34,044 bases of DNA from Candidatus Woesearchaeota archaeon (GTDB lineage: Archaea; Nanobdellota; Nanobdellia; Pacearchaeales; GW2011-AR1), in contig CAYUCQ010000002.1 of the NCBI GenBank assembly GCA_964443535.1, positions 1 through 34,044 on the forward strand. The letters run 5' to 3'. A model generated the notes under the pieces. It saw only the letters and a program-made list of their open reading frames with translations, was not told the origin of the DNA and made no database searches. The number at the start of each line of letters is the position of its first letter. Position 1 is the stretch's first letter. A program made the translations under genes and the position numbers. This document shows positions 276-20,824 of the stretch, in pieces.

Positions 276-3200
276 TTATATAAACGTATGCGGCGGTATT
301 GTAGTTATTTCCCAAGTGTTTGCTCCGCCAGCTCTATACTCTGCAGCAGCGATAATTGGAACTTCTCTAAGGCAAATAAATATTTCTTCTTGTCCTGAAT
401 TTGCATCTTCTGTATTCTTGGAATTGTTGCCAGAAGGCAAGCTGGCTCCAACAGCTTGCTTTTGCACGCCGTGCTCCAAGATAGTCTCTGCACACGATAA
501 CGAGCTAGTGCTGCTAATGCTGAAATTAGGAGCAGAAATTAAATTAGTTCCAGAAGGCTGCTGCAAAAGATTTCTTCCTGTAATATTAATATTGCTAAAA
601 AGAGTATTTCCAGTATTATTCAGCAATAAGTCAACGCTCTTATTTTTCTCTCCTGGCACTAGATTTCCAAAAGATAAAACACCTTGATGTGAAACAAAAG
701 CTTCTGACATTAAAATAAAGCTCTCGTTCCTAAAGCCTTGCCCTCCCAAAGAATCAATGACAGAAGAGCTAACATTCCATTGCCCTGGAGAATCAAAATA
801 CCATATGTCCACAGAGCACGAGTAATTTGCAGTTACAGAATTTACATCTGCTAAGCGGGCGCAGGAAGAATTTGTCCTAACTAATGTTCCGTTGCTAAAG
901 CTGGCGTTTAAATTAACTAAATTCTGCAGCTTGCCGCTCTGCACTAAAACAGAAAAATTAACATATCTCACCCTGCCAGGATTTATATTCAAATTGCCTA
1001 TATTAGAAATATCAAGAACCTTCAAGGGAAAGTCTATGAATAAATATCTTTCTTCTGTTTTGTTTTTATTTCCCACAAAATCTCCTGCAAATGTCTGATA
1101 TCTATAGCTTCCATCTGTTAAATTACTTTGATTAACATATAAGCTCCATGCAGTTTGATTATATTTGTTAAGATTAGAATAATACTGCTCCATCACCTCA
1201 CTTCCAGATAGACTTCTATTCCAAATTTTAACCTCGTCAATTGTCCCATTAAATGTTTTTGCAGCAGTATCGTCATTTCCTATAATTACAGGTATTTCAT
1301 ACGGGATATCTAAACTCTGGAGAGTCGTAACAGTAGAGTCTATCACAATTCCATTTATATAAAGAGTTAAAGAGCTTCCTGCAACATAAACGCCAGTATA
1401 ATAATTCCACTTGTTAATTACAAAGGGATCATATCCAAAAGGAGTATTAACTCCTGCAGAACCTCCGCCTTTTCTTACTGTAAATGCTACACGCCCTCCA
1501 TTGTTGCTTCTGTAAAGAAATCTAAATGGTCCGTAATTTTTGCTTTCATTTGACTTGGATAATATAGTTACATCTGAAAAAACAGGTCGTATGCGCGCCC
1601 AAAAAGATACTGTCAATCCAGAAGAATAATTTTGATTTAAAGAAGTTGCATTTCCCACATTAATAAAATCGCCATCGCCGTCAAATTCATAAGCTCCCCC
1701 ATATTTCCCGCTAGAATTAAAAGTAGCTCCTACAACAAGACCATTATTCTTATATCTGCTGACATCTGCTACATAAGTAAAATTCTCTCCCAGAAGGCTT
1801 CTATTATCAAAATTAGTCATAAGAATAATAGACTCGTCATATAATGTAAAATTAGTGCCATTCCAATTAAAAATAACTTCTTTCAAATTATCTTCTGTTA
1901 TACTGACATTTATGCCTACAAAATAACTTTGTATAGTAGTCCCATTAGGAGGAGTTGGATTAGTAAAATTAAGCTCGGGAACAAAACTATCTTCTCCAAA
2001 ACCAAAGAATAAGTTTCTATTACTAATCATATTCCAAGATTGCATTAGAGTCTGGCTCAAATCAGAAGGAGTAGCGCTAAACATATAATTAGAATAATAA
2101 TTAGTTTCCGTGCCTCCAGTATTATTTTGCACATATTCAAGAACAGATTGCTTTGCTATCTTTCCATTGCTTCCTGTTAAAACAGAAAATCGCAGATTGT
2201 CATTTATATCTCTCGCACTTATATTCGCATTCGGCGCTGCAGAGCTATTTGTATAATTAGCATAAGCTTCGACATACCAATGCACATTCAAAGTGCCTTG
2301 GGCGCCATCATCCCAAAAATTATCTAAACTTCCTATTGATCCTGTTACATTAGTAAAGTTCCACTCCCCGCCTAAAACAGAGCTGTTAATTACAAAATCA
2401 CCAATTCCAGAAGCAGAGGCATTCAATGCTCCGTCATATAAACTAAAGTTATGATTTCCATCATCAAGATAAAAGCCGTAACTAGAAAGGCCCGCAATAG
2501 TTTTAAAATTAAAATCTCTAAATATATTATTGTTTGAGCTCGTGCCTAATATTGCGCCAATGCTTGAAATACCAGAAGTAAAAACTCTGCTTAAACTAAA
2601 ATTATTGTTATTGCTTGAGATAAGAGCGATACCATGTCCAAATGATCCGCTAGAGTTAATAGTGCTATTATGGATGTCTGTATTAAAACTTGAGATTAAA
2701 ATAATACCAAAACCTTGCTCACCAAAAGTAGTGATGGTATTGTTAGAAAGTTTGCTAAAATTAGTGCCGCTTGACAAAATGACCCCATAGCTGACATTGG
2801 AAAAAGTAGTAATCTTATTATTTTTCAAACTATTATTTAATCCGCTCAAAAGTTCAATTCCATATCCTGTACTGCCTAATGTAATTATTATATTATCACT
2901 AAAATTATTTCTGTCAGAAGTTGTAAGCGCAAAGTGAAGAGAAATTCCTCTTGTACTATTTCCAAAAGTAGTAATATTATTTTTATGAATAAAATTGTCT
3001 GTGCTTCCTCCTACAGTGATGCCATCTGCAAGGTTATTTCCGGTGATGATAAGATTATTGCCTACTAAGTTATTTGAAGACTGGGAAATAACTCTAATTC
3101 CTTTTGCATTAAAGCCTTTAGTTGTGATATTGTTATATAAAACACTTGAGTTGCCAATACTATTAATATGAATGCCATGTGCATCATTATCATTAGTAAC

Positions 3201-5036
3201 TACCGTATTATTAACAACATTATAATTTTTTCCATCCAAATCCAGATAAATTCCATAGCTGAAACTATCAAAAGTCTTTATTGAATTATTCGCAACCATC
3301 ATATTAGCGCCGCCTCTCAATCGTATTCCCTTTCCGCCATCAGTTTGGAAGCTGTTATTCGTTATTGTGGCATTAAATGCAAGGAAGAAATTAATTCCAT
3401 GGTTATCTGCCCTGTTTAAGCCCTGAGTTATTTTGCAATTTCTTATAGTAGTATAATTATTTCCAAGTACAGAAGAAAATCCATACCTTGCTGCGCCAAG
3501 AACTGTTCCATAAGTTATTCCAAATCCCTTGCAGTCCAAAGTTACATTATTTGCCAAGACGCTAAAACAAGTTGCTGTAGAAGCCACATTAGCAGTCAAT
3601 GTATAAACACAGTTTGGAACATCCAGATTTCCGCACACTGCAGTGCCTCCACAAGCCAGATTATTGGCATAGGCTGTTTCATTTCCGAACTCAAACTTTA
3701 ATGTATGCGCTCCTGGTGTTAAAACTTTGCTTGTCTCGTAACTAGTAAAATTGCAGGAATAATTTTCAACCAGTGCGTAGCAAGAATCTGTTGCGCAGCT
3801 CTCCCCTCCAATAAACTGCGTGTTAACAATATTTTCTCCGCATTTTAATTCCAAGAATTTCAAATCATATCCTTCTTCAGCAGAATCTGTCCATGTTGTC
3901 CCATTTGTGGCAGTTATTTTCAAATCAGCTGTTCCTGTGGTATTAAATAAGACAGTCCAATTGCCTCCAACTGTAGGATAACTCTGCACATTAAGAATAG
4001 TTATGCTAATTTCAAAAGTCTGATTGCTTAAATGAGGAGTATTCCATTCAACATAATCAATAAGTCCATTGCTATTTTTATCAAAAGCGCTAAATGGCTC
4101 ATAGCTTCCTTCTTCAACCCAATAAACTCTAATAGAACTTTCTTTTCCAACTGCCAAAATTTCCGGCAAATCAGTAAAAGTTAGAATATTTTCATATCCT
4201 AGTTCTGGTCCAGAAATAAAAACTTTTTTCTTATGCTCATCAATCTGCTCCTCAAAAGCGGCAGGCCCATCAGTAGCATATTCAACTTCATAAACAGCCG
4301 TCTCGTCCTGAACAACAACTTCTTTAGAATCTCCTTTCTCTATTATCTCGCTCTCTACTAATTCAGGGCTTGTTAATATTTCCGGCTCTTCACTATTATT
4401 TAGCTCTTCAGTTTCATTAATAATCTTATCAACCGTTTCATTTACAACTTTTTCTTGAACAGCAATTTCTGAATCATTTATCTCAAGTCCAGTTTCATTC
4501 TTAGTTTCATTTAAAATAATCTCGCCTTTAGTTTCATCAACAGTTTCTTTAGCTACTTTTTTTTCTTTTTCAACAACCTCGCTCTCTGCAACATTAGCCT
4601 CTGCTATTTTCTTAATTACAATATTTTCTGCTTCTTTAGGAAGCAGAATTACATTCTCGCCTTCTTTTAAATCAACTCTCTTTATCCATTTTACAGGCTT
4701 TCCTATTACAGGCCTGTCAACAATCTGCGCATCAAAGCTGATATTAGAAGCTTTTTCTATAGCAGGAGCAAAAAAAACATAATCCTGGCCTAAAAGATTA
4801 GAAAAGATGCCAAAAGTTAATCCTAAAAAAACAGATATCAAAACAATAAGGGAGATATTAACTAAAAACACTTTCTTATCATCTTTAACTAAAGGCGAAT
4901 TTGCACTATCATTAGACTCATTTTTTTTAGCAGGTCCAAGATAAGTATTAACAACTTTTCCATTTAGCCTTTTAGTCTCATATAAGTAAGGCCCAAATAC
5001 CTTGCCTCCTTTTTTTATATATTTATGATACGCCAT
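276..5036 (-). CDS. Giant membrane-anchored surface protein with right-handed beta-helix (NosD/PbH1-like) repeats, LamG/concanavalin-like domain and Ig-like segments
   Basis: 1586 aa. N-terminal TM helix, repeated GI.l..s.nn.i.nN.I.T beta-helix turns, LamG motifs (GAYEFDGDGDFI, FNGTIDEVKIWNRSLS) and many NxS/T sequons. Confidence 0.85.
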   Translation of the reverse strand: MAYHKYIKKGGKVFGPYLYETKRLNGKVVNTYLGPAKKNESNDSANSPLVKDDKKVFLVNISLIVLISVFLGLTFGIFSNLLGQDYVFFAPAIEKASNISFDAQIVDRPVIGKPVKWIKRVDLKEGENVILLPKEAENIVIKKIAEANVAESEVVEKEKKVAKETVDETKGEIILNETKNETGLEINDSEIAVQEKVVNETVDKIINETEELNNSEEPEILTSPELVESEIIEKGDSKEVVVQDETAVYEVEYATDGPAAFEEQIDEHKKKVFISGPELGYENILTFTDLPEILAVGKESSIRVYWVEEGSYEPFSAFDKNSNGLIDYVEWNTPHLSNQTFEISITILNVQSYPTVGGNWTVLFNTTGTADLKITATNGTTWTDSAEEGYDLKFLELKCGENIVNTQFIGGESCATDSCYALVENYSCNFTSYETSKVLTPGAHTLKFEFGNETAYANNLACGGTAVCGNLDVPNCVYTLTANVASTATCFSVLANNVTLDCKGFGITYGTVLGAARYGFSSVLGNNYTTIRNCKITQGLNRADNHGINFFLAFNATITNNSFQTDGGKGIRLRGGANMMVANNSIKTFDSFSYGIYLDLDGKNYNVVNNTVVTNDNDAHGIHINSIGNSSVLYNNITTKGFNAKGIRVISQSSNNLVGNNLIITGNNLADGITVGGSTDNFIHKNNITTFGNSTRGISLHFALTTSDRNNFSDNIIITLGSTGYGIELLSGLNNSLKNNKITTFSNVSYGVILSSGTNFSKLSNNTITTFGEQGFGIILISSFNTDIHNSTINSSGSFGHGIALISSNNNNFSLSRVFTSGISSIGAILGTSSNNNIFRDFNFKTIAGLSSYGFYLDDGNHNFSLYDGALNASASGIGDFVINSSVLGGEWNFTNVTGSIGSLDNFWDDGAQGTLNVHWYVEAYANYTNSSAAPNANISARDINDNLRFSVLTGSNGKIAKQSVLEYVQNNTGGTETNYYSNYMFSATPSDLSQTLMQSWNMISNRNLFFGFGEDSFVPELNFTNPTPPNGTTIQSYFVGINVSITEDNLKEVIFNWNGTNFTLYDESIILMTNFDNRSLLGENFTYVADVSRYKNNGLVVGATFNSSGKYGGAYEFDGDGDFINVGNATSLNQNYSSGLTVSFWARIRPVFSDVTILSKSNESKNYGPFRFLYRSNNGGRVAFTVRKGGGSAGVNTPFGYDPFVINKWNYYTGVYVAGSSLTLYINGIVIDSTVTTLQSLDIPYEIPVIIGNDDTAAKTFNGTIDEVKIWNRSLSGSEVMEQYYSNLNKYNQTAWSLYVNQSNLTDGSYRYQTFAGDFVGNKNKTEERYLFIDFPLKVLDISNIGNLNINPGRVRYVNFSVLVQSGKLQNLVNLNASFSNGTLVRTNSSCARLADVNSVTANYSCSVDIWYFDSPGQWNVSSSVIDSLGGQGFRNESFILMSEAFVSHQGVLSFGNLVPGEKNKSVDLLLNNTGNTLFSNINITGRNLLQQPSGTNLISAPNFSISSTSSLSCAETILEHGVQKQAVGASLPSGNNSKNTEDANSGQEEIFICLREVPIIAAAEYRAGGANTWEITTIPPHTFI

Positions 5037-5126: not shown

Positions 5127-8100
5127 CTACTTTTTTTCTTGCTTGGGTTTTTCTTTCACGACTGATTTTTCTTTTGCAACTATAATTTTAGTACTATGTA
5201 TGAATTTGCGCAATTCTTTTTCTTTGACTTTGAAAGGCGAGTGAAGCAAGGGCCTGAATTCAATAAAGTAAGGAGAGCCTTTATTGTAATCAGAGCACTC
5301 TACCATGCCTAATCCTGTAGACAATCTTGAAAGCAGAGTGCTTATCTTTGAGCTGTGCCTGTCTCTCGCTCTTTTAATGTCTCCCTCATATCTTGTTCTC
5401 ATCTGTATTTGAGTTCCTATATTTCCCCTTATAGCCCCTTTGAAGTCTGTCAGCACTTGAGAAATCATTAGCAATCCTATGCCCCATTTTCTAAACTCTC
5501 TGACTGCCTGCTCAAGCTTGACATAAGCTCTGCTGCCGCCATATTTAGGCAATAATCTATGAACTTCGTCAAGTACAATCAAATGCCTCAAAGAGCTGCT
5601 CTCTGACAATCTCGCCCTGTAAATTCTATCAAGACTATTTTCAATAAACATATCCAAGACTTTAGGAGACAATTTATCCAGCTTGAATATTGTTAATCCT
5701 GATTTCTTCAAATAATAAACAACATCCAAATTCATGGTGTTTTTATTAATTTCAATAACTCTGGCATTAAACGCCATTGGCTTGCTCAAGGAAAACTTCT
5801 TGTAAAGCGAGCGCATTCCTTTATCATTATTTTTTTCAAGGAAGCCTGTCCATTGTCCTGTAGGATCAAAAACAATAATGCTCTGTCCTGCTCTCTTCTT
5901 TAATAATTCCTCAACAGCAACCATTCCTGCAACAGTCTTTCCTGCGCCTGTTCCTCCTGCAATTAAAGTGTGCCTGTTCAACTGCGTATGGTCAAGATAA
6001 GTCTTGACTCCAGAGTCTGCAACATGCCCTACATAAGCGAAATGCGACTTAGGAAGCAAAGCAAAGTCCGGAAATACATATATGCTCTTCTTCTTCATTT
6101 CTTCTACTTTTTTCTCAAACAACCTGCGCCTCAAATAAGCAAAATAATAAATTAATATTATAACTAATATAACAACAAACAAGCCTGCCAAAATAAAAGG
6201 AAGATAAACAACAGAAAAACTATTTGCTAAAAAACTGGAAAGCTTCCCAAACCCGCTTATGAAAGGGCTAAATAGCTGGCCTCTTCCAACTTTGAATGCC
6301 TGCTTAATCAGCACAACACTTTCAGAATCGTAGGATGCGCTTACAATCAATTCATAATCCCCAAAATTAACATTATTTGGAATATTCAGCTTTTTTTCCA
6401 GCGATAAAGAATCTTCAATTTTCAAATTCTCTGTTTCGCTTGAAACTATATTGCCTTCATTATCAACAATCACATAGAGAAATTCCACATCATAACTATC
6501 AAGTCTGCCAAGATTAAAAACAGACATTTTGAACTCCAGCAAATCCCCTGGAAGAAGAACATATTTTTCAATAATCGCCTCCCCATTTAATAATTTCTCT
6601 TCCAAGCCCTTGACTATAATTCTTACTGGAAGAACATAAGCTGCTTCATTAGCACTCACACCAGAGCCTGCGACAGAAGTGACAAATCCGTTCTCTAATA
6701 TATTTTCGCCATCTTCAGCATCCTCTCCAAAGAAATATATATTTCCAACATAAACACCCTTATCTAATCCAAATATTCTGATTCTAACATCTCTTGTCTG
6801 CAATGCTGGTATTTCCACACTATTATTTACAGAAATTATATTAGCCAAGGATTTATCAATTAAAACATCTATCTTCGTCAAAATATTTATCTTTAAATCG
6901 TTTTCATCCAGGCTTGTAATAAGAATGTTTTCAAAAACTTCTTCTCCGATATTCATCACTCTTTCTATAGTGTTTACGCTAACATGAAAATTTCCTTTTT
7001 CAAGAACAAGCTTGGGCTTAGCCACAGAGGTCGTTCCGCTACCACTGCTCCCGCTAGAGCTGCTGCTCGTGCTAGCAGCAACAGCAGTAGAAATGCTAAA
7101 TGTCCTGCTATGAGTATAATTCTTATTTCCCATAGTGTCATTTGCATAAACACTAAGAGTATAACTGCCGTCGGCTATGCTGGAATTAGTGCGATTAAAC
7201 ACTGCCCCGAACAAGCTTGTATGATCAGCGCTATAAAACATGCTAAAATTATTTATCCCTCCATTTAGGCTATATTGCACGCTTCCATTCTCATTTAAAG
7301 AGACATTAATATTAACAGAAGAGGCGCCAATGCTTTGCCCATCTGTAGGAGCATTTATAGTAACTATAGGCGCAATACTATCGTTATTAAAACTAAATAT
7401 CAAATTTCTATTAGTAGTCATATTCCATGATTGAGATAATACTTCTCCAGGCAAAGTAGCATTAAATGTATAATTAGAATAATAATTAGTTTCTACTCCT
7501 CCGCTGTCATTTTGCGTGTATTCCAGCAATGCTTGTTTCACAATTCTTCCATCGCTTCCTGTTAAGACAGAAAATCGCACGAAATTATTAATGTCAAAAG
7601 CGCTTACATTCGCATTGGGTGCTGCAGAATTGTTTGCATAGCTTGCATTGACTTCCAAATGCCAGTGCACATTTAAAGTTCCATTAGCTCCTGCATTCCA
7701 TGTTTTGTCACTAAATGTAACATTTGTAAGATTCCAAATACCTCCATTTGCAGCGCCTGCCACAAGAAAATCATCTGCACTTGAAGACAATGAGCTATCA
7801 CTAAAACTAAAATTATTATTGTTTCCTGAAATATAAATATTACTAGTACCAACAGCACCGCCTCTTATAACATGGTTGCTAAAACTATTATTGTTAGTGC
7901 CTGTATTCTCGCCAAAAAGAACACCTACGCCATTAGCACCTATATTATGAATAAAATTGCCTATAAATTGATTATTTAAAGATCTAGCCAGATTAACGCC
8001 ATTGCCGCTGCCAAAAGCAGTAAGATTATTATGATATATTCTATTATTAAAAGCGGTAGTAGAGTCTAACTCTATCACATGCGAAGATGAACCATAAGTT

Positions 8101-10037
8101 GAGATGTTATTATGACTAATGTTATTATTAGAACTCGCGCCAGAAATAAGAATACCGTCTGTGCTTGAGCCACTGGTTACAATTCTATTATGTATTACAG
8201 TATTATTGCTTGAAGAATCAAATATCAATCCTCTCGTAGCAGTAACATTAATAAAATTACTAATTATCATGTTACTCGATGATAAAAAATAAATGCCTGC
8301 ATTGCCTGCGCCTGTTCCGAAACTTAATATAGTGTTATTAGTTATATTTGTATACCTTGTAGCAAGGTTATCACTTATACCGACCGAGTTAGTCCCATTA
8401 ACTATTATAGTATTATTAAATATAGTAGTATTGAACGCGTTTGATAAGAAAATAGCATCGTCTGTATTTCCTGTAGTATTTCCTTCAAAGATAACAAGAT
8501 CTCTTATCATGCTAAAGTTTGCCGCAGTAACATATATTGCATAGGATGATTCAGAAGAATTAGTTCCGTTAATAGAATAGTTTATTGTATATCCCTGCCC
8601 ATTAAGAGTTATATTGTTAGCAGTTATATTAAAGCAAGTTCCGCTGCTTGAATTTACATCTTGTGTTAATGTATAAATTGAATTTGAAGTATTAAGGACC
8701 TGGCATGAGGTAACGCTAGGGTCAAATATATAATCAAAATCAACATCTCCTCCTCTAACTCTTAAATCAAAAGTATCCTGGCTGCTCATCAAATCATTCA
8801 ATAAAACCCTATATCTATCATCTGCAAATACTCCCCTGAATTCTGCAATCATATCATCTCCATTTTCCTCGTAAACTTCAATATCTGCGCTAGAACTGCT
8901 TCTCGCGAAGATAGTAATATCTTTGTTTGTAGTTAAATTAGTCTCAAAACTAATTCTAATATAATGTCCGTCAGGAATAGTTGCATAATCTCCATCTTTT
9001 GCTCTTATTTTTTCATAAACATCTTCAACAAAAACCTTATTTTCATCAAGATGCTCTGCATCAGTTATCAAAATTATCTCAAATGTCTGCTCACTCAAAT
9101 GAGGAACTATCCATGCTATATAATCATAAATTCCATCTGCGTCATTATCAAGAATATTTTCAGCAGGAATATATTTGCTTTCCTCTTTCCAATAAATTCT
9201 TACGCTTTCCGAATCACTAATGCCTATCTCTTCAGAAAGTTCTGTAAATGCAAGAACATTATCATAATGAATCTCGTCAGGCCCGATAATCTTTACTCGC
9301 TTTCCGTTCTCTAAATCTTCTTCAATAGAATAAGGTGCTTCAGTGTAATACTCTATTTCAACTTCAGATACAGGCTCCCTGACATCAAAATGAGTAACCT
9401 CCTGTTCAGTCGTTTCTTCAGAAACAGCAAGTCCTGTGAATCTCAAAAATCCCCTGCCAAAGCCCTGTTTATTTTCGTAAGAAGTATCAACAAAAACATT
9501 GCCTTCGTCATCAGTCAAAGTTTCATTTATTAATACATTAATTTCTTCATCAACTTGCTTAATATGAACAACAGATAAATTCTTTGCTATTAAAGGAATC
9601 GCGATTGAAAGATTTGAAGCTTTGGAAAGCACAATCTTTTTATTCCATTTTACAGGCATTCCAAGAATCGCCCCGTATTGAGATGTTTTTATATTGGCAT
9701 TAACTCCAGACTTATCATCAAAAACATCTATCTCTTTTATTAGAACATTATTTTCAATATAATCTAAAGTATTATCCCCATTTATCCCAATTTTTTCAGT
9801 TTTTTCAACAACAACACTGCCAGTTATTTCAAAAGGTGTGGCAAAAAGCAAAAGTAGGACAATGAAAAAGAGGCATAGGGTAAAAATAAGGAAAAATATA
9901 TTTTTCCTTTCATGAAAATATCCCTTCTTAGGCTGTCCAAGATAACTTGTAACAACTTTTCCATCTATCCTCTTATTCTCATACAAGTAAGGCCCGAATA
10001 CCTTCCCTCCTTTTTTTATATATTTCTCATAAACCAA
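5127..10037 (-). CDS. Giant surface beta-helix protein fused to a C-terminal HerA/FtsK-like (DUF87-type) P-loop ATPase
   Basis: 1636 aa, TTG start. N-terminal TM, beta-helix, Ser-rich linker, second TM followed by RRR, then RHTLIAGGTGAGKT (Walker A), VFDPTGQW, LIVLDEVHR (Walker B), REFRKWGIGLLMISQ. Confidence 0.85.
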   Translation of the reverse strand: MVYEKYIKKGGKVFGPYLYENKRIDGKVVTSYLGQPKKGYFHERKNIFFLIFTLCLFFIVLLLLFATPFEITGSVVVEKTEKIGINGDNTLDYIENNVLIKEIDVFDDKSGVNANIKTSQYGAILGMPVKWNKKIVLSKASNLSIAIPLIAKNLSVVHIKQVDEEINVLINETLTDDEGNVFVDTSYENKQGFGRGFLRFTGLAVSEETTEQEVTHFDVREPVSEVEIEYYTEAPYSIEEDLENGKRVKIIGPDEIHYDNVLAFTELSEEIGISDSESVRIYWKEESKYIPAENILDNDADGIYDYIAWIVPHLSEQTFEIILITDAEHLDENKVFVEDVYEKIRAKDGDYATIPDGHYIRISFETNLTTNKDITIFARSSSSADIEVYEENGDDMIAEFRGVFADDRYRVLLNDLMSSQDTFDLRVRGGDVDFDYIFDPSVTSCQVLNTSNSIYTLTQDVNSSSGTCFNITANNITLNGQGYTINYSINGTNSSESSYAIYVTAANFSMIRDLVIFEGNTTGNTDDAIFLSNAFNTTIFNNTIIVNGTNSVGISDNLATRYTNITNNTILSFGTGAGNAGIYFLSSSNMIISNFINVTATRGLIFDSSSNNTVIHNRIVTSGSSTDGILISGASSNNNISHNNISTYGSSSHVIELDSTTAFNNRIYHNNLTAFGSGNGVNLARSLNNQFIGNFIHNIGANGVGVLFGENTGTNNNSFSNHVIRGGAVGTSNIYISGNNNNFSFSDSSLSSSADDFLVAGAANGGIWNLTNVTFSDKTWNAGANGTLNVHWHLEVNASYANNSAAPNANVSAFDINNFVRFSVLTGSDGRIVKQALLEYTQNDSGGVETNYYSNYTFNATLPGEVLSQSWNMTTNRNLIFSFNNDSIAPIVTINAPTDGQSIGASSVNINVSLNENGSVQYSLNGGINNFSMFYSADHTSLFGAVFNRTNSSIADGSYTLSVYANDTMGNKNYTHSRTFSISTAVAASTSSSSSGSSGSGTTSVAKPKLVLEKGNFHVSVNTIERVMNIGEEVFENILITSLDENDLKINILTKIDVLIDKSLANIISVNNSVEIPALQTRDVRIRIFGLDKGVYVGNIYFFGEDAEDGENILENGFVTSVAGSGVSANEAAYVLPVRIIVKGLEEKLLNGEAIIEKYVLLPGDLLEFKMSVFNLGRLDSYDVEFLYVIVDNEGNIVSSETENLKIEDSLSLEKKLNIPNNVNFGDYELIVSASYDSESVVLIKQAFKVGRGQLFSPFISGFGKLSSFLANSFSVVYLPFILAGLFVVILVIILIYYFAYLRRRLFEKKVEEMKKKSIYVFPDFALLPKSHFAYVGHVADSGVKTYLDHTQLNRHTLIAGGTGAGKTVAGMVAVEELLKKRAGQSIIVFDPTGQWTGFLEKNNDKGMRSLYKKFSLSKPMAFNARVIEINKNTMNLDVVYYLKKSGLTIFKLDKLSPKVLDMFIENSLDRIYRARLSESSSLRHLIVLDEVHRLLPKYGGSRAYVKLEQAVREFRKWGIGLLMISQVLTDFKGAIRGNIGTQIQMRTRYEGDIKRARDRHSSKISTLLSRLSTGLGMVECSDYNKGSPYFIEFRPLLHSPFKVKEKELRKFIHSTKIIVAKEKSVVKEKPKQEKK

Positions 10038-10178: not shown

Positions 10179-10193
10179 AAGAAGCTTTAAAAA
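10179..10193 (+). promoter_or_regulatory. BRE/TATA promoter of the tRNA-Glu 5' half
   Basis: AAGAAGC-TTTAAAAA; TATA starts 31 nt before G1. Confidence 0.6.
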
Positions 10194-10216
10194 AGATGCA
10201 TCCTATCTATAAAAAT

Positions 10217-10254
10217 GCCTCTGTAGTCTAGTGGTCAAGGACACGGCCCTTTCG
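10217..10254 (+). tRNA. tRNA-Glu(UUC) 5' half (positions 1-37) of a split or disrupted gene
   Basis: GCCTCTG-TA-GTCT-AGTGGTCA-AGGAC-A-CGGCC-CT-TTC-G. No T-arm follows. The acceptor strand pairs with CAGGGGC at 16303-16309. Confidence 0.85.
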
Positions 10255-10257
10255 CGG
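10246..10257 (+). repeat. Left copy of the 12-bp core direct repeat (attL-like)
   Basis: GCCCTTTCGCGG, identical to 16267-16278 and spanning the 7-nt anticodon loop. Confidence 0.85.
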
Positions 10258-10271
10258 GGGAGAACAAAATT

Positions 10272-10324
10272 CCCCGTCTTTGAAGGGCGGAGAAACCAAG
10301 GCGAAAAGACCTTAAAGGGTGGAG
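10272..10324. repeat. Two imperfect 21-bp palindromes of consensus CTCCRCCCTT-N-AAGGGYGGAG at the left island end
   Basis: 10272-10292 CCCCGTCTTTGAAGGGCGGAG; 10304-10324 AAAAGACCTTAAAGGGTGGAG (left arm degenerate). Confidence 0.7.
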
Positions 10325-10340
10325 AGCATAGAAAAAACAT

Positions 10341-10441
10341 GCCCGATTAGTCTAGTGGTCAAGGACGCGGCCCTTTCGAGATAGTTTCGAAAGAAAGATC
10401 AAAGAACGGCCGAAACCCGGGTTCGAATCCCGGATCGGGCA
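10341..10441 (+). tRNA. Complete tRNA-Glu(UUC) with a 28-nt BHB intron at 37/38 (10379-10406)
   Basis: Acceptor GCCCGAT/ATCGGGC, anticodon TTC at 10375-10377, T-arm CCGGG-TTCGAAT-CCCGG. BHB: helix CTTT/AAAG, bulges CG|A and AA|C, outer helix GAT/ATC. Followed by a T6 tract. Confidence 0.95.
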
Positions 10442-10457
10442 TTTTTCTATTTCTAGA

Positions 10458-10754
10458 TTAAATAGAAATCCGATAATTCATTATATAATCCCATCCCTTG
10501 ACCACAGCGATTATCAGAATAACTGCGAGCAAGCCACCTCCGAAAATAGTGACAATTCCTATAATAATTTTAAAAGGAGTTGGTATCGCTTCGTCCACTA
10601 TTTTTTCTGCTGCATCTTCAGTAACTTCTTTTAATACTTCTGGGTTAGTGGGATCTTTCATAACTTGTGTAATAACTGAAACAGCCCATAAAAGAAAGAG
10701 AATTGATCCTATTGCTGTCAAGATTCCACCGATAGTGATTGCTTTCTTTACCAT
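10458..10754 (-). CDS. Small membrane protein with two TM segments, unknown function
   Basis: 98 aa, two hydrophobic segments flanking an acidic helix. Confidence 0.7.
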   Translation of the reverse strand: MVKKAITIGGILTAIGSILFLLWAVSVITQVMKDPTNPEVLKEVTEDAAEKIVDEAIPTPFKIIIGIVTIFGGGLLAVILIIAVVKGWDYIMNYRISI

Positions 10755-10840
10755 CTTATAATTTTGTTATAATAAGTAGTATCTAAACATTATTGTGATA
10801 AAACCAATAGATATAAATTGTTGAAAATTACTAGAAAGCT

Positions 10841-11212
10841 ATGAAATTCAAAGAGGTACCAAAAGATAAAGTAGAAATTATCGGCTCAATTATAAACGGG
10901 TCTCCAAATAGCGTAAATGGAAGTCCTTGGCTCTCGGTTTATCCATGTGATCCACAAGATATTGTCGACAACCCTGTTCTTTTAAATAAATCAGTCGCGG
11001 CAGGCATTGTTGCCAGCGGAGCCATTGTTCTAGGTTTACCTATTCCAATTTATTCTTATGATATAGTTAGGATGGATGGAAGTATTTTCGATATAGACAG
11101 ACATCTCCTTTCAACCTCTGGTTCGGTTATATTAAGAAGAAGAGAAATAGATAAAAGCCTTGCAGAACATCATTCTTCAGATATTCCAGATTATTACAAA
11201 TTTTCAAAATAG
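10841..11212 (+). CDS. Hypothetical protein
   Basis: 123 aa ATG-led ORF with TATA-like ATATAAAT about 30 nt upstream. Confidence 0.6.
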   Translation: MKFKEVPKDKVEIIGSIINGSPNSVNGSPWLSVYPCDPQDIVDNPVLLNKSVAAGIVASGAIVLGLPIPIYSYDIVRMDGSIFDIDRHLLSTSGSVILRRREIDKSLAEHHSSDIPDYYKFSK

Positions 11213-11260
11213 TTATGAGCAATAAGCAATAATTATAAGGCTATATAAATTAAAATTTAT

Positions 11261-12454
11261 ATGGTAGGATGCGATTATTGCGAAAAGCCAACTGACGGTT
11301 ATGCTCACAAATGCAAGTTCTGTGGGCAAGTTCATTGTTCGGAACATTTGTTGCCAGAGTCGCATGATTGCAGGGGATTAGAATATCGCAAACAAAAAAA
11401 TTCTGAAAGATGGGGCAGGGCAGTAACCGGCCATTCTATTAACACTAAATATAATATTGATGAAGAGTCCGTTTATGAAAAGCCAACAAAAAACGTTAAA
11501 CAACACCATAAAAAACAGAAGTTTTCTGATAAGTTAAAGGGCTATGCTATCACAAAATATGAAAGTCTAAGATATTGGTTAAGAAAGAGAGAGCATCATC
11601 GATATGATTTTGAAGGGAGATCAAGCTATCTAATTACTACGATTCTAATTCTTGCGACGGCTATTGTAGGTGTTGCTATCTTCTACTCTAATGCAGAAAA
11701 ATTGAATGAGATTGACTTCTGGATCATAAAACTCGGAGGAGTATTAATCTTAGTTTCTCTGTTTTTTGCAATTAAATATGGGTGGAGATTTGGCAAGGAA
11801 ATGATTAATATCTTTAAGAGACAAAAAAATTGGTTTAGATATTTAGTTATAATTTTGATAGTTATTTTACTTTGGCAAGGTTATACGCATAAGGACAATG
11901 TTTTGAATCCTGTCTTTGAAACTTATAATAAAACTAACTTTACCTTGCTGATGCCTATCGGGATAAGTAATTTTAGCTTAGGCGAGAGTAATAGCGATGT
12001 TTCGTTTGATTATTCATCAGGCCAAGATAGTAAAAAAACATTCGATTTTGATATTCCTTCATCTAGTAAATCAGCTGGAGATCTGGCTGAAATAGAAAGT
12101 AGAATCTTAGTGTTAGTAAATGAAGAAAGAGCCAGAAATGGAGCTCATGCCTTAAGGACTAATAACAATCTTGATAACCTTGCACAGAAGCATAGTGATA
12201 GGATGATATCAGAAGATTTCTTTGAACATAGTCATTACAACGTAGGAGAAAATATTGGAGAAGTTCCTCTCCACTATAATGTTTTAGGATGTGGTTCAAC
12301 TTACTCAAATGATGATATGGCTGAATGTATGGTTACAGGTTGGATAGAAAGTCCAGGGCATCACATGAATATGATAGACAGAAGTTATGGGTCAACAGGT
12401 ATTGGCGTTGCGTGCGATAGCTCAAAATGTAGGGGCACGCAAATGTTCAGTTAG
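11261..12454 (+). CDS. AN1-type zinc finger + 3 TM + CAP (SCP/PR-1) domain protein
   Basis: N-terminal CDYC...CKFCGQVHCSEHLLPESHDC. C-terminal CAP motifs LVNEERARNG, AQKHSDRM, GENI, GWIESPGHHMNM, GIGV. Confidence 0.85.
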   Translation: MVGCDYCEKPTDGYAHKCKFCGQVHCSEHLLPESHDCRGLEYRKQKNSERWGRAVTGHSINTKYNIDEESVYEKPTKNVKQHHKKQKFSDKLKGYAITKYESLRYWLRKREHHRYDFEGRSSYLITTILILATAIVGVAIFYSNAEKLNEIDFWIIKLGGVLILVSLFFAIKYGWRFGKEMINIFKRQKNWFRYLVIILIVILLWQGYTHKDNVLNPVFETYNKTNFTLLMPIGISNFSLGESNSDVSFDYSSGQDSKKTFDFDIPSSSKSAGDLAEIESRILVLVNEERARNGAHALRTNNNLDNLAQKHSDRMISEDFFEHSHYNVGENIGEVPLHYNVLGCGSTYSNDDMAECMVTGWIESPGHHMNMIDRSYGSTGIGVACDSSKCRGTQMFS

Positions 12455-13610
12455 TTCCCTTACAACTATGTTCGTGCTCAAGTAACTGATTGAATTGTTC
12501 AAATTGCTCTCCGCAATGTTTACACTTTCCTTCTCTTGCGACGGCATCAGTATAGAGAAAATTAAAGTGCATTTCTTCTGTCAAAATAGAAGTCATCTGT
12601 TTCTCTAATTGTTCGTAGTGATCTATTGCTGAAAGAGCGTCTTTTTTGTCTTTTGATTTAAGAGTTAGGTTAGATAGGCCAATCGCCCTTAGTCTTTTAC
12701 TCAACGATGGATGAGATGAAAAGAATTTAGTCTTTTCATTGTCTACAACCGTTTGTTTAATATTTTTATGATCTTCTTTCATGTAGGCTTTGTGAATGCT
12801 GTCATATACATTGACAAACTGTCTTCCTTCTGAAAGAAAGTGGGCAATCGAGTTATATCCTACTTCTTCGAAATATAAAGTATAAGCAGAGTAATTTACT
12901 AAACCTCTACCAAAAATTTCTTTACTTGAAAAATGAGTTGCGATATAATCGGCCCTATATTCTATCTGTCTAGAATAAATAGAAATGATAACTCTGAAAA
13001 TAAAAGAGTAGGATTTTGCAAATCCGCTTATGAAAAGTCCAATAACTGCAAGTTCGGCCAAAGGGATTACATTCCACCATGCTTTTCCAAAATTTGAAGA
13101 TTTTTCTAAGGATATCTGTATTTTAGCTAATAGGGATCCAACGATGGTATCATTTCCGTATAAATGTCCAAATTCGTGAGCAAGAATTGATTTAAATTCT
13201 TCAGAAGAAATCGATCTTAATCCTACAATTCCAATACCCAATTTTCTTTTAAAGAGGCCAGTAACATAAATTTCATCTGATGGCAAAACGTGAATTTCAT
13301 CCGGCATTCTTACTCCGATATTTTGAGAAACTTCTCTAATCGCTTTGATCAACTTAGGAAATTTATCCTGATGAATTGCATAACCTCTATCTTTAGATTT
13401 AACTGAAATAGCAACAATAAGAGGAATTACGCCTAATCCTACAAATATCCACCCAAAGATATTTGTTCCAGAAAATTCCCACCATTCACCGACAAAAATG
13501 CCTATGCGGAAGAGGGCATAATATACTGAAATAAAAAGAGCAACAGTAATCAATAAGCTAAGATAAATTCTAAACTGAATCGTAAAAGGTATTTTTATCT
13601 TTCTTTGCAT
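12447..13610 (-). CDS. M48 (HtpX/Ste24-like) membrane zinc metalloprotease with C-terminal C2H2-like zinc finger
   Basis: SILAHEFGH, YSRQIEYRAD, SSHPSLSKRL, TM helices; C-terminal CKHC...HEHSC. Confidence 0.85.
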   Translation of the reverse strand: MQRKIKIPFTIQFRIYLSLLITVALFISVYYALFRIGIFVGEWWEFSGTNIFGWIFVGLGVIPLIVAISVKSKDRGYAIHQDKFPKLIKAIREVSQNIGVRMPDEIHVLPSDEIYVTGLFKRKLGIGIVGLRSISSEEFKSILAHEFGHLYGNDTIVGSLLAKIQISLEKSSNFGKAWWNVIPLAELAVIGLFISGFAKSYSFIFRVIISIYSRQIEYRADYIATHFSSKEIFGRGLVNYSAYTLYFEEVGYNSIAHFLSEGRQFVNVYDSIHKAYMKEDHKNIKQTVVDNEKTKFFSSHPSLSKRLRAIGLSNLTLKSKDKKDALSAIDHYEQLEKQMTSILTEEMHFNFLYTDAVAREGKCKHCGEQFEQFNQLLEHEHSCKGTN

Positions 13611-13725
13611 AGTAATAAGTCTTTTTTTAATTATAAATATCTTATCTTTATTTTTACAGGTTATCGCTCGTATTAATACTCTGGCAACAAAGCATTTTTA
13701 ACATTCAAATTCCAATTTTATAGGT

Positions 13726-14358
13726 ATGCAATCAACACATTCAATAACAATCCAACAAAGAGGAGATAAAATACATAGATACGAAAGCAAAAATCAGAAT
13801 GATTTTGTGATTGAAGAAGACATTGCCGGATTAGACGCAAATGTTCTTGTTGATTTAGCTGAAAGTGAAGAATTTAAGCATAATATTAGAGAACAAATAA
13901 GTATTGGCGTACGGAAATTTTATACAACAAATGTGGCGCTTGGAGAAGCAAGACACGTTTTAGTGAAGAAAAGAAAATATAAACATCAAGATGCAACAGA
14001 CAAACTCCAAAATATTCTTAAAGAGTTTAACATAACTAAGATAAACCATAATAGGGAGAGCAATGATTTAGGAAATAATTGGGTAGATATTGTGAAGAAA
14101 CAAACACACATCAAAAAATTTAGAACCTTCCCGACCGATTGCAGAATTCTCGCCAATTTATTCAAACAAGCAAAAGTTAACCTCTATTTTACAGAAGATC
14201 AAGATATAGAAAAAGCACTAAATATTCTAAAGGTTCCGATTAGAATAAGAATTGTAGGAGAGGCTTCACAGCTAGATAGTTTTGAAATTAAAAGATTCTT
14301 TCAGGAGCAATTTAAGGAAAAGCGCAAAGCTTTTCATAAATCTCGGAAGCGTCGTTAA
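13726..14358 (+). CDS. PIN-domain (VapC-like) nuclease
   Basis: Acidic PIN residues in LDANVLVD, ALGEARH, PTDCRIL, FTEDQD. Confidence 0.7.
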   Translation: MQSTHSITIQQRGDKIHRYESKNQNDFVIEEDIAGLDANVLVDLAESEEFKHNIREQISIGVRKFYTTNVALGEARHVLVKKRKYKHQDATDKLQNILKEFNITKINHNRESNDLGNNWVDIVKKQTHIKKFRTFPTDCRILANLFKQAKVNLYFTEDQDIEKALNILKVPIRIRIVGEASQLDSFEIKRFFQEQFKEKRKAFHKSRKRR

Positions 14359-14617
14359 TATTTCCGTTTGATTTCTTTAGAGCTTCTTGCCATAATTCGT
14401 TTCTTACTTCCTTAACTTCATCCATCGTTTTTACTCTTTGTTTCTTAAGAACTGAAAGAGCGTATGCTGCTTCAAATTTTGAAGTGCTCATTTGACTATT
14501 CATTGCCATTTGAGCTTTAGTTGCTAACTCTTGAAATTGCTGTTTAAATCTTTCTCCAGTTAGCTCTATGTTTTTAAATATATTATCTGATTCTTTCATT
14601 TTCTCTGTGTCTTGCAT
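14312..14617 (-). CDS. Hypothetical helical protein, convergent with and overlapping the PIN gene
   Basis: 101 aa ATG-led ORF; 47-bp 3' overlap with the PIN ORF. Confidence 0.6.
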   Translation of the reverse strand: MQDTEKMKESDNIFKNIELTGERFKQQFQELATKAQMAMNSQMSTSKFEAAYALSVLKKQRVKTMDEVKEVRNELWQEALKKSNGNINDASEIYEKLCAFP

Positions 14618-14821
14618 TTTATTTCCAGTTAAATTTAGGGCTTTACAAGGTTTAAAAAACTACCTAAAGAACAGAAAGTAACACAATTATTCAAATAAAC
14701 TAAGTCCTTTTTCATCATGATAACTACTAGTAAAAGTACTATATAAATCTTATTTGTATTGACAACTACAAATCAGTGTCGAAACCAAAAACTATTTCAA
14801 GTTTAAATTATAAGTCATATA

Positions 14822-14974
14822 ATGATAGCAAACTGTGCTGGTTGCGAGTATGGGTTTTGGGAAGCCTATGAATGGCAAACGAGAGGTTTTGATGTCATAC
14901 TGGATGGAATGGATGAGAGAAAATATGTCTTCATTAGAGTTCTTGACAAAAGCGGAAGAATAGTCTTGGAGTAA
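14822..14974 (+). CDS. Small 50-aa CxxC protein, possibly first gene of the WYL operon
   Basis: Manual translation MIANCAGCEYGFWEAYEWQTRGFDVILDGMDERKYVFIRVLDKSGRIVLE. Stop lies 2 nt before the next ATG, and its 3' end supplies a GGAG RBS. Confidence 0.5.
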   Translation: MIANCAGCEYGFWEAYEWQTRGFDVILDGMDERKYVFIRVLDKSGRIVLE

Positions 14975-14976
14975 AA

Positions 14977-15216
14977 ATGAGCGAAAAATGCAAGAATTGC
15001 CGTAGAGAGTTTAATTCTGGTATATGGATTTCTCCGCAATTTGCAGATGAAAAAGCCTTATTATTCTGTTCAGAAAAATGTAAAAAAGAATATCTCAAAA
15101 TGAAGCTTGAAAGAATAAAGGTTAATTATCCAAAGTTTCATGAAAAAATAATGCAAACCTCTAAAAATTGGAAAGAAGGTGTATTTTGGAAAGGGAAGGA
15201 TAAAAATGAAAGATAA
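14977..15216 (+). CDS. Small zinc-finger protein (TRASH/MYM-like CxxC...FCSxxC)
   Basis: CKNC...FCSEKC, 79 aa. Confidence 0.65.
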   Translation: MSEKCKNCRREFNSGIWISPQFADEKALLFCSEKCKKEYLKMKLERIKVNYPKFHEKIMQTSKNWKEGVFWKGKDKNER

Positions 15217-15715
15217 ATTCCAATTAACAAAAGAAGAAACAGAAGCCCTATATACAATAATTAAGGAGTACGAAAAGGACGCTCCCGAAAGCGACAAAGA
15301 ATATTATGACGATTACTATGATGAATACAAGACTCCGATAAAAAAGAGAACAATAAAGTCTATTCTAAATAAAATTACTAATTTATTGCCTGAAGAACAA
15401 AAAGAAGAAATAGACAAGGATTTTCTGAGGCAAAAATATCACACATTTAATAACGAAGTCAATGAAAGAGTTTATTCTATAATTGAAAAGGCATTTAATC
15501 AATTAAAGACCATTGAAATAGAGTATTTTAATATGGAAAGCGCAAAGTTCAGCAAAAGAAAGCTTGATGTTTATCATAAATCAAGAAAGTATGTTATTGG
15601 ATACTGTCATTTAAGAAAGGACATAAGAAAATTCAGAACACATAGAATCGCCTCTGCCAAATTGACAAGAGATAGCTATAAAATTCCGGAGGATTTTGAT
15701 AAGAATAGGTATTAA
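15206..15715 (+). CDS. WYL-domain protein without an obvious HTH
   Basis: IEIEYFN...KRKLDVY...YVIGYCHLRKDIRKFRTHRI. Start moved to the ATG at 15206, which follows a GGAAGG RBS. Confidence 0.85.
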   Translation: MKDKFQLTKEETEALYTIIKEYEKDAPESDKEYYDDYYDEYKTPIKKRTIKSILNKITNLLPEEQKEEIDKDFLRQKYHTFNNEVNERVYSIIEKAFNQLKTIEIEYFNMESAKFSKRKLDVYHKSRKYVIGYCHLRKDIRKFRTHRIASAKLTRDSYKIPEDFDKNRY

Positions 15716-15716
15716 A

Positions 15717-16076
15717 ATGGCAAACGATAACGGCTTAGTTGATGAGCTTGAAAAGCTTCAGACATTAAAGAAAGATATAGAACGGAAAGAAGAAGAACTA
15801 AAGAGCAAAATCATTGAGCTAGCACAAGAGAAAAATACAGATTTGTTATTTGGTTCACATAAAAAGTGTTCAGTGAAGGAATACATTAAAGTGGTTTATC
15901 CAGAAGATAAGACTCTTTTTGTCAATTTAATTAAAAATAAGGGACTTTATGACAGATTCTCCTCACTTAACTATCTTAAATTAAGTCCTGCAATTATTAA
16001 AGGCGAGATTGATAAAGATATAGCAAGTTTAACTAGACAAGAAAAAGCCTTCAGGCTTTCCTTGAAAGAGATATAG
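15717..16076 (+). CDS. Coiled-coil hypothetical protein
   Basis: MANDNGLVDELEKLQ..., ATG 1 nt after the WYL stop. From memory it resembles C-terminal extensions of some RecB-like PD-(D/E)xK proteins (unverified). Confidence 0.65.
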   Translation: MANDNGLVDELEKLQTLKKDIERKEEELKSKIIELAQEKNTDLLFGSHKKCSVKEYIKVVYPEDKTLFVNLIKNKGLYDRFSSLNYLKLSPAIIKGEIDKDIASLTRQEKAFRLSLKEI

Positions 16077-16195
16077 AAGAACTAAAAGGAAAATTATATT
16101 AACCTCCTCGTCTTCAACTGATCATGCTCACCAAAAAGTGGGGGAAAAGACTAAAGAAATAGGAATGTCCGATTGACCGCAAAATGACGCAAGTG

Positions 16196-16216
16196 CTCCA
16201 CCCTTCAAGGGCGGAG
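16196..16216. repeat. 21-bp palindrome at the right island end
   Basis: CTCCACCCTT-C-AAGGGCGGAG (one mismatch). A further half-site CTCCGCCCTT lies at 16263-16272. Confidence 0.8.
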
Positions 16217-16266
16217 AAAAGGGCGTGCTCAGCCCAAATAGGGAGGAGATGCAGGTATAGGGCTCC

Positions 16267-16278
16267 GCCCTTTCGCGG
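16267..16278 (+). repeat. Right copy of the 12-bp core direct repeat (attR-like)
   Basis: GCCCTTTCGCGG. Confidence 0.85.
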
Positions 16279-16310
16279 CCGTAACCCGGGTTCAAATCCC
16301 GGCAGGGGCA
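16276..16310 (+). tRNA. tRNA-Glu 3' half (positions 38-73)
   Basis: C-GGCCG-TAAC-CCGGG-TTCAAAT-CCCGG-CAGGGGC-A. No D-arm upstream; complements the 5' half at 10217. Confidence 0.85.
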
Positions 16311-16366
16311 TTCATTAAATCAAAGATTTCATACCACTGACGGTATGAGAACAGAGTTTGAATAAA

Positions 16367-16379
16367 CCGGCAGGGGCAT
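16367..16379 (+). repeat. 13-bp duplication of the tRNA-Glu 3' end
   Basis: CCGGCAGGGGCAT, identical to 16299-16311. Confidence 0.75.
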
Positions 16380-17397: not shown

Positions 17398-17520
17398 TGA
17401 TCCTGCCCGGATTTGAACCGGGGACCCCCGCCTTTCTTAGCTTTTCAGCGTGAAAATAAAGCTCTAACGAGCCATAATCTTATAAGAGCGGTGCTCTAAA
17501 CCGGGCTGAGCTACAGGATC
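17398..17520 (-). tRNA. tRNA-Ile(UAU) with a 47-nt intron at 37/38 (17434-17480)
   Basis: Acceptor GATCCTG/CAGGATC-A, D-arm GCTC/GAGC, CCGCT-CT-TAT-A|intron|A-GGCGG, T-arm CCCGG-TTCAAAT-CCGGG; central helix CTTA/TAAG. Confidence 0.92.
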
Positions 17521-20702: not shown

Positions 20703-20774
20703 GGCGGTTGTAGTTTAAAGGCAGAATGTCAGCTTGTGGCGCTGAAGACGGGAGTTCGATTCTCCCCTCCCGCC
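20703..20774 (+). tRNA. tRNA-His(GUG) with encoded G-1 and two acceptor-stem mismatches
   Basis: TCAGC-TTGTGGC-GCTGA anticodon arm, GGGAG-TTCGATT-CTCCC T-arm, C73; acceptor GCGGTTG/CTCCCGC. Confidence 0.88.
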
Positions 20775-20824
20775 CTTTTTGGAGAATCGAACATTTTTTA
20801 AAGCATATCTATAATAGAGCATAA

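Follow-up and report, generated by a model that had tools for sequence, protein, structure and literature searches.

Introduction

Integration of mobile elements into tRNA genes is textbook knowledge, and elements, as a rule, rebuild whichever gene they cut. In streptococci, cis-mobilizable elements (CIME), which are islands that lack an integrase and are flanked by attachment (att) sites, are mobilized in trans. Here we describe an island of ~6 kb that splits a gene for tRNA-Glu(UUC) in a Candidatus Woesearchaeota archaeon (assembly GCA_964443535.1, contig CAYUCQ010000002.1). The window, as we call the whole stretch of DNA that was analyzed, is the first 34 kb of this contig (C2, positions 1 to 34,044), and its source assembly has 609,508 bases in 47 contigs, is 85% complete, and has a G+C content of ~33%.

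According to passages of the Islander work, islands restore the gene that they split (PMC4383910), and the sections considered here of a review of archaeal recombinases likewise describe integration events as restoring an uninterrupted gene (PMC8371274). For integration into the anticodon loop, the classes of Williams 2002, as these sections present them, have a core made of a 7-bp overlap flanked by dyad symmetry (PMC8371274). Mobile elements have also been proposed, in parts of two further papers, as the cause of split or fragmented tRNA genes in archaea (Chan et al. 2011, PMC3218864; Sugahara et al. 2012, PMC3293823). With a probability that we put at roughly 0.8, the host tRNA-Glu(UUC) gene of the window was interrupted by an integrated mobile element of ~6.0 kb that brought with it a whole replacement tRNA.

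A Host tRNA Gene Split in Its Anticodon Loop

The two halves of the host gene (table 1) fit each other throughout. The 5' half consists of the acceptor strand GCCTCTG, a D arm, the anticodon stem strand CGGCC, and the loop letters CTTTCG, and it is 86–94% identical to the 5' parts of the intact tRNA-Glu genes of the same genus. The 3' half continues with the anticodon stem strand GGCCG (16277–16281), the T arm (16286–16302), the acceptor strand CAGGGGC (16303–16309), and the discriminator A (16310), and the acceptor strands of the two halves pair at seven of seven positions with one wobble, U4.G69. Both halves carry the 12-mer GCCCTTTCGCGG, a direct repeat inside the tRNA gene that bounds the island. 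Its only two copies in the 609,508 bases of the assembly (at 10246 and 16267) are 6021 bp apart, and removal in silico of the DNA between them leaves a gene that ARAGORN calls tRNA-Glu(ttc), with a cloverleaf of -32.7 kcal/mol. About one 12-mer repeat per 6 kb is expected by chance; the placement of this one, precisely where two complementary tRNA halves part, is not chance. The original prediction, made from the letters of the window, had described a tRNA-Glu(UUC) gene split in the anticodon loop by a 6-kb island, 7/7 acceptor pairing with one G-U, a misfit of both halves with the acceptor of the tRNA that lies between them, and a shared repeat at which excision of 6021 bp would yield a canonical tRNA, all of which our analysis reproduces. 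Upstream of the 5' half, the box TTTAAAAAAG agrees in motif and position with what reading by eye shows before the majority of the 28 tRNA genes found by ARAGORN in the assembly, and it also stands before the intact tRNA-Glu genes of relatives.

Empty sites are present in related genomes. When 40 of these were searched with the two halves (counts out of 41 include the window's own genome), only tRNA parts were matched, in 21/41 genomes by the 5' query and in 31/41 by the 3' query. Comparison of the locus in related metagenome-assembled genomes, a check that the original prediction had recommended, revealed a contiguous tRNA-Glu(UUC) gene in seven of nine same-genus genomes, G005 and G007 not being resolved. 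Six of the nine (G001, G002, G004, G006, G008, and G009) have an intronless gene that reads CGGCC CTTTCGC GGCCG through the core, and the gene of G003 has a cis intron of ~100 nt at 37/38 (CUUU:GAAG). No homologue of the island's open reading frames (ORFs) of at least 90 aa was found at the same-genus tRNA-Glu loci that were compared for gene order. Among 401 genomes of the family, a query with the left arm of the island matched 54, but outside the window the matches cover the tRNA part only. As a separate observation, related cis introns occur at 37/38 of tRNA-Glu(UUC) in two genera (L003 in G003 and L244 in G318), and the start of the G003 intron, CGGGG, resembles the start of the element arm.

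Homologous Islands in Other Archaea

With the right arm as query, 401 genomes of the order yielded one true homologue besides the window, in a genome of the same family and another genus (G408). The right arm was found in none of six other same-genus genomes and in one of 12 genomes of the genus of G408. Fourteen further matches of 18–30 nt among the 401 genomes were rejected, as no tRNA half follows any of them and several lie in a coding motif like that of ABC permeases. In G408, a single 157-kb contig holds, in order, a 5' half with the acceptor GCCCCTG that ends in the same 12-mer, an arm of 83 nt, a complete tRNA-Glu(UUC), ~5.7 kb of further DNA, an arm of ~140 nt, and the 12-mer with the 3' half. 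The gene is split at the same nucleotide as in the window, the acceptor of the 3' half is CAGGGGC, and that of the complete tRNA is GCCCGAT/ATCGGGC. The two islands resemble each other only at their junction regions, and their interiors are unrelated. The whole left junction (10213–10446) is 78% identical between them (mean column identity of 84% in alignment A1, some flank included), and the right junction (16121–16312) is 76% identical (71% in the three-way alignment A2).

The interior of the G408 island encodes a tyrosine recombinase of 469 aa (PF00589, 31.0 bits at a cut-off of 27.1; phrog_1 integrase, E 3e-13), along with a protein like Holliday-junction resolvases, one with a ParB-like N-terminus and an NYN domain, two winged-helix (wHTH) proteins, and a VapB-like protein. 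The family of this integrase has matches in 120 of 401 genomes of the order (E 1e-10 or better), and in two other loci examined its copies lie 86–90 nt from tRNA genes. An Rfam match to RT-16 RNA (96 bits; L220 150–321, minus strand, on contig C9 of G365) was noted ~8 kb from one integrase homologue.

Two further contigs each hold one junction. The first 27 nt of the complete tRNA gene of the island (Glu2, discussed below), scanned through metagenome contigs and viral contigs, had one match in the former, L233, and none in the latter. L233 carries a methyltransferase homologue, a 5' half with the acceptor GCCCGAA, the arm, and Glu2 with its intron, and its left junction (5' half, arm, and Glu2) is 96% identical to that of the window over 238 nt beside a different host flank. 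A degenerate right-arm pattern of 28 nt had no match in metagenome or viral contigs. The other contig, L076 of genome G041, was found with a 16-nt word across the right junction (attR/attP) that was scanned through species-representative genomes and viral contigs; nearly all of its 132 matches are chance occurrences in GC-rich bacteria, and L076 is the only relevant one. It is a low-GC archaeal contig that ends in a homologous stretch of 190 nt comprising the arm and the 3' half at 74% identity, and the acceptor of this 3' half differs again from those of the other copies.

These instances speak to the suspicion, raised in the original prediction, that the split is an assembly artefact in the form of a strain chimera joined at tRNA repeats. 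Such a chimera is conceivable in a metagenome assembly of 47 contigs, and public contigs of the same DNA do break at tRNAs. However, both junctions stand on one contig in G408, L233 and G041, which are separate assemblies, repeat the left and the right junction, respectively, and the exact sequence common to the junctions is 12 nt, which is too short to mislead an assembler. The suspicion was not borne out, the same architecture being present in three other independent assemblies, and we regard an artefact as extremely improbable.

The distribution of the split also bears on the idea of an ancient and now immobile rearrangement, in which one recombination was followed by vertical inheritance and the arms were conserved for another reason, for instance as the promoter or a regulatory RNA of the adjacent tRNA. 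This idea would agree with the lack of an integrase in the window copy, with the likely promoter box in the arm next to Glu2, and with the variable gene order around tRNA-Glu among the genomes of the genus. It is nevertheless very unlikely, given that the left junction of L233 is 96% identical to that of the window whereas the flanking methyltransferases share only ~35–54% protein identity, that the split is sporadic in two genera whose other members have an intact gene, and that the G408 copy contains an integrase. The sporadic occurrence and the near-identical arms in distant hosts indicate that the element has probably spread horizontally rather than descended vertically, and the 96% identity of the left junction to that of L233 argues that an element of the window type was mobile recently.

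A Replacement tRNA Gene Carried by the Element

The complete tRNA-Glu(UUC) gene between the halves, here called Glu2, has GCCCGAT/ATCGGGC as its acceptor, and its intron of 28 nt (10379–10406), located at 37/38, has a canonical bulge-helix-bulge, CUUU:AAAG. Of the 28 tRNA genes in the assembly, ARAGORN assigns two to Glu: Glu2, which is the sole intact one for UUC, and a CUC gene with an intron of 143 nt. The acceptor GCCCGAT follows the arm in G408 and L233 as well. Because the pair 27:43 covaries over the three copies (C:G, U:A, and A:U), Glu2 is under selection. A candidate promoter box, CCTTAAAGG, lies ~32 to 23 nt upstream of Glu2, which is the usual distance, inside the arm, and a role as the Glu2 promoter is plausible. 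The original prediction had missed that this intervening gene, conserved together with the element arm in three assemblies, is by all appearances the element's own replacement tRNA-Glu(UUC). Neither had it noted that the window copy lacks an integrase.

The copies of Glu2 differ in their introns. That of G408 (L184 13728–13800) is intronless, so that the full 12-nt att core lies inside it, and in those of the window (10373–10407) and L233 the 28-nt intron, directly after position 37, interrupts the core. The position of the intron in two of three copies fits the notion that introns protect tRNA genes, here perhaps the element's own, from integration. We also considered gene conversion between the 5' half and Glu2 as the source of their identical D arms and dropped this idea, since the D arm is the family-wide consensus.

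Archaeal-type introns are present in tRNA genes of the window assembly. The tRNA-Glu(CUC) gene at C16:9054–9269 of G000 has a long intron (143 nt), which is also found in L018 (G018), L009 (G005), and L218 (G408 C3), and the sequence of this intron is visibly alike between genera.

Arms, Core Site, and Proposed Mechanism

The two arms of the element, which the original prediction had named a trailer (at attL) and a leader (at attR), share the 10-bp motif AAGGG[C/T]GGAG. The left arm has one copy at 10283 and another at 10315, and both are parts of partial palindromes; in the right arm, a 21-bp palindrome (16196–16216) is formed by two copies, and a third (16263–16272) extends into the core. 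Several copies thus make up 21-bp palindromes, and one copy coincides with the left arm of the core. The motif has seven matches in the whole assembly, and five of the seven lie at most 85 nt from the junctions. Conserved RNA helices between the motif copies were considered and rejected, as changes in G408 break the pairing (for example, 10320 goes from T to C while its partner, 16200, goes from A to T). Because these changes would break such helices, the motif copies are most likely binding sites for proteins of the recombination machinery.

Deduced from both junctions, the attP core of G408 reads CTCCGCC / CTTTCGC / GGCGGAG, which is a perfect 7-bp inverted repeat; that of the window has one mismatch in the repeat (GGGGGAG). 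The tRNA's own site reads CGGCC / CTTTCGC / GGCCG, and the 7-nt anticodon loop CTTTCGC inside the core is presumed to be the overlap region.

We propose the following mechanism. A tyrosine integrase would recombine two sites. One is the attP of the element, in which 7-bp inverted repeats enclose the 7-nt sequence that also forms the anticodon loop, and the other is the anticodon stem-loop of the tRNA gene, which would serve as attB. The products would be attL, composed of the 5' half and one element arm, and attR, composed of the other arm and the 3' half. The tRNA would not be rebuilt because the block of identity is only 12 nt, and Glu2, 83 bp inside attL, would take over the decoding of GAA and GAG. 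The five copies of the 10-bp motif in the two arms would mark the sites of recombination proteins. As for the host halves, they are most likely remnants that are either silent or non-productive, and they may look intact because the insertion is recent. A test for rebuilding at the left junction agrees with the absence of restoration: the 5' half is followed by arm sequence that is not tRNA, no intact target tRNA is rebuilt, and the separate complete tRNA-Glu begins 83 bp further on. Two other types of insertion were considered and rejected. An integrase of the SSV type, split by integration, was dismissed because no ORF spans the junctions, and a transposon with target-site duplication because the ends share only GGAG-like letters.

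The halves could alternatively be a functional split tRNA of the Nanoarchaeum type, transcribed separately, annealed through the arms, and then cut and ligated to tRNA-Glu(UUC). Split tRNA-Glu genes are known in N. equitans, as Table 1 of one report lists (PMC3218864), and in trans the halves of the window form a full cloverleaf in RNAcofold. The sequence GGGGGAG directly after the 5' half (GGCGGAG in G408) complements CTCCGCC before the repeat of the 3' half, the 4 + 3 nt per strand match the spacing in a bulge-helix-bulge at 37/38, a strong host promoter box is still present before the 5' half, and neither half has decayed in any assembly. However, no bulge-helix-bulge motif results, because the central 4-bp helix would be CUUU against CUUU, which cannot pair, in contrast to the cis introns of Glu2 (CUUU:AAAG) and G003 (CUUU:GAAG). 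The cofold of minimum free energy is a three-way junction with no bulges, the changes in G408 (T to C facing A to T) break a longer candidate helix (10315 with 16196) without compensation, and no promoter box of the tRNA type was seen in the 230 nt upstream of the 3' half. Moreover, the split is absent from the same-genus genomes searched and is accompanied by an integrase in G408, and the host halves would be dispensable because an intact isoacceptor gene, Glu2, stands 83 bp away. We consider trans-splicing of the halves highly improbable.

Where the original prediction had left a choice between a non-restoring integrative element and an intermediate in the origin of split tRNAs, the first is supported by the empty sites, by the G408 island with its tyrosine integrase at the identical crossover, and by the L233 junction beside another flank; a trans-spliced or nascent split gene is disfavored by CUUU facing CUUU and by the intact isoacceptor. 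A bolder conjecture can be drawn from the geometry of the site. Because an attP that mimics the anticodon stem-loop makes halves with GC-rich complementary flanks and the spacing of a bulge-helix-bulge at 37/38, the locus might be a natural "proto-split tRNA" in which the element that caused the break still resides, and, in the boldest version, the splicing endonuclease of these archaea, which has broad specificity, might already be joining the halves to a small extent. Completion of the motif would take changes in a single 4-nt stretch of the leader. We think this very unlikely; if the halves were already joined, the locus would show, still alive, an intermediate stage in how split tRNA genes arise.

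Cargo and Mobility of the Window Copy

The eight ORFs between Glu2 and the right arm (table 1) include proteins with zf-AN1 and CAP, M48 peptidase, PIN, and WYL domains. None is similar to any gene of the G408 element. Homologues of the M48 protein occur in one of nine same-genus genomes and those of the CAP protein in three of nine, in unrelated contexts. The integrase family of G408 has no match in the 85%-complete window assembly. With arms and replacement tRNA kept and the integrase absent, the window copy is an att-flanked island without its own integrase that is either stranded or movable only by an integrase acting in trans, and its integrase was either lost or never present.

Several observations weigh against interpreting the island as a mobile element. 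Searches with Pfam, PHROGs, and NCBIfam found no recombinase or remnant of one in the island, and the sole match to PF00589 in the assembly is a Xer-like fragment at the end of another contig that is unlike the G408 integrase. Among the public runs listed for this DNA, nine are of DNA and none is of RNA. Neither the circle junction nor the empty site of this strain was seen in Logan contigs of runs X1, X3, X5, and X6, in which the organism is present at ~3–5x; these contigs are short and break at tRNAs, and none among the pieces listed bridges either junction of this strain. The Logan joints that skip the 6021 bp have sides of 23–30 nt and other acceptor stems, which identifies them as intact tRNA-Glu genes of other organisms. 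The mobility of the window copy is putative only. The instances number four in all (window, G408, L233, and G041), and L233 and G041 show one junction each. Both halves are fully canonical and undecayed in all assemblies. The 7 nt that flank the loop copies are mutually complementary (6/7 in the window and 7/7 in G408), which makes a role at the RNA level possible, although a palindromic attP would produce complementary flanks automatically. Finally, in the hairpin directly after the 5' half, one stem pair changes in a compensatory manner (G-C to C-G) between the window and G408, a change compatible with both an RNA helix and a DNA palindrome.

Table 1. Features of the split tRNA-Glu(UUC) locus and its island (window coordinates).
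Feature	Position	Strand	Remarks
Host tRNA promoter box TTTAAAAAAG	10186–10195	+	centre ~27 nt upstream of 5' half
Host tRNA-Glu(UUC), 5' half	10217–10257	+	tRNA positions 1–40; forms attL with core copy at its end
att core copy 1, GCCCTTTCGCGG	10246–10257	+	12 nt; tRNA positions 29–40
Element arm at attL (P' arm)	10258–10340	+	78% identity to G408, 96% to L233 (whole left junction)
Complete tRNA-Glu(UUC), Glu2	10341–10441	+	83 bp inside attL; Rfam tRNA 57.3 bits; ARAGORN Glu(ttc), 28-nt intron
Cargo region	10458–16076		eight ORFs, no recombinase
Cargo ORF	10841–11212	+	
Cargo ORF	11261–12454	+	zf-AN1 plus CAP
Cargo ORF	12447–13610	-	M48 peptidase
Cargo ORF	13726–14358	+	PIN
Cargo ORF	14312–14617	-	
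Cargo ORF	14977–15216	+	
Cargo ORF	15179–15715	+	WYL
Cargo ORF	15696–16076	+	
Element arm at attR (P arm)	16125–16266	+	76% identity to G408, 74% to G041/L076
Host tRNA-Glu(UUC), 3' part	16267–16310	+	tRNA positions 29–73; forms attR
att core copy 2, GCCCTTTCGCGG	16267–16278	+	12 nt
Second isolated copy of tRNA 3' end, CCGGCAGGGGCA	16367–16378	+	last 12 nt of the tRNA; 57 nt downstream of 3' half

Genomic Neighborhood

Because the position of a methyltransferase gene differs between genomes, the gene order around tRNA-Glu(UUC) is fluid within the genus. In the window this gene follows the 3' half on the right, and it adjoins the 5' end of tRNA-Glu in four other same-genus genomes, as well as in G408 and L233, which suggests that either the tRNA unit or the neighboring block is inverted in the window. 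The left neighbor of the split gene, a very large ORF on the opposite strand, is common to the window and G001. Two giant ORFs stand side by side in the window and are related to each other (276–5036, minus strand, 1586 aa; 5127–10037, minus strand, 1636 aa), and homologues of them lie near tRNA-Glu in several relatives. The window also contains a tRNA-Ile(UAU) gene with a 47-nt intron (17398–17520, minus strand) and an intronless tRNA-His gene (20704–20775, plus strand), the latter being the sole call of ARAGORN in the window when run without the intron option.

The isolated copy of the tRNA 3' end, CCGGCAGGGGCA, is possibly the scar of an earlier recombination at that end. Duplicated 3' ends are also seen ~90–130 nt downstream of tRNA-Gln genes in L009 (G005) and L161 (G041), and such duplicates, in the window and in these two genomes, were probably left behind by other integrations into 3' ends. 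Outside the window, contig C6 of G000 (~1740–1808) has an orphan sequence like a 3' half, with a T arm and the acceptor TAGGGAT, preceded by a TATA-like box; a pattern search for a 5' partner of it found none.

Comparison with Known Systems

What is new at this locus is an integration into a tRNA gene that replaces its target by a whole spare gene instead of restoring it. No account of a non-restoring element with a replacement tRNA, or of the element in the window, was found in those parts of the full-text literature that were covered, a body from which most subscription journals are absent. Once the integrase is gone, as in the window, the host would depend on the DNA of the element for its only tRNA-Glu(UUC). 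A connection between mobile elements and the emergence of split tRNA genes in archaea has long been proposed, and the locus would be a concrete case of it that can still be seen; it would also add a family of integrative elements, with its att site, for small-genome archaea of groundwater, in which mobile elements are poorly known.

The island is like the CIME of streptococci in that its att arms are conserved, it contains no recombinase, and autonomous relatives of it bear an integrase; mobilization in trans is here only putative. Like islands that target tRNA genes, the island is bounded by direct repeats, has an empty site in relatives, and has a homologous element with a tyrosine integrase (G408). 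It shares with the anticodon-loop elements of tyrosine integrases, as far as these are described in the sections considered (PMC8371274), a tRNA target and a presumed 7-nt overlap in the loop, flanked by the dyad symmetry of the stem. It differs from the tRNA-targeting elements that the cited passages cover in that these carry a segment of the tRNA and rebuild the gene at one junction, whereas the window element shares 12 nt and the gene stays split; it also differs in supplying a whole second tRNA gene and, in the window copy, in lacking an integrase. The host gene, in turn, resembles the split archaeal tRNAs of N. equitans and the Desulfurococcales, as presented in parts of the literature (PMC3218864), in that the break is at the canonical 37/38, the halves are a few kb apart, their flanks are complementary, and relatives have an intact gene. 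Unlike the split tRNAs treated in the relevant parts of two reports (PMC3218864, PMC3293823), it has no bulge-helix-bulge, an intact isoacceptor is present, and the element, in G408 together with its integrase, is still in place.

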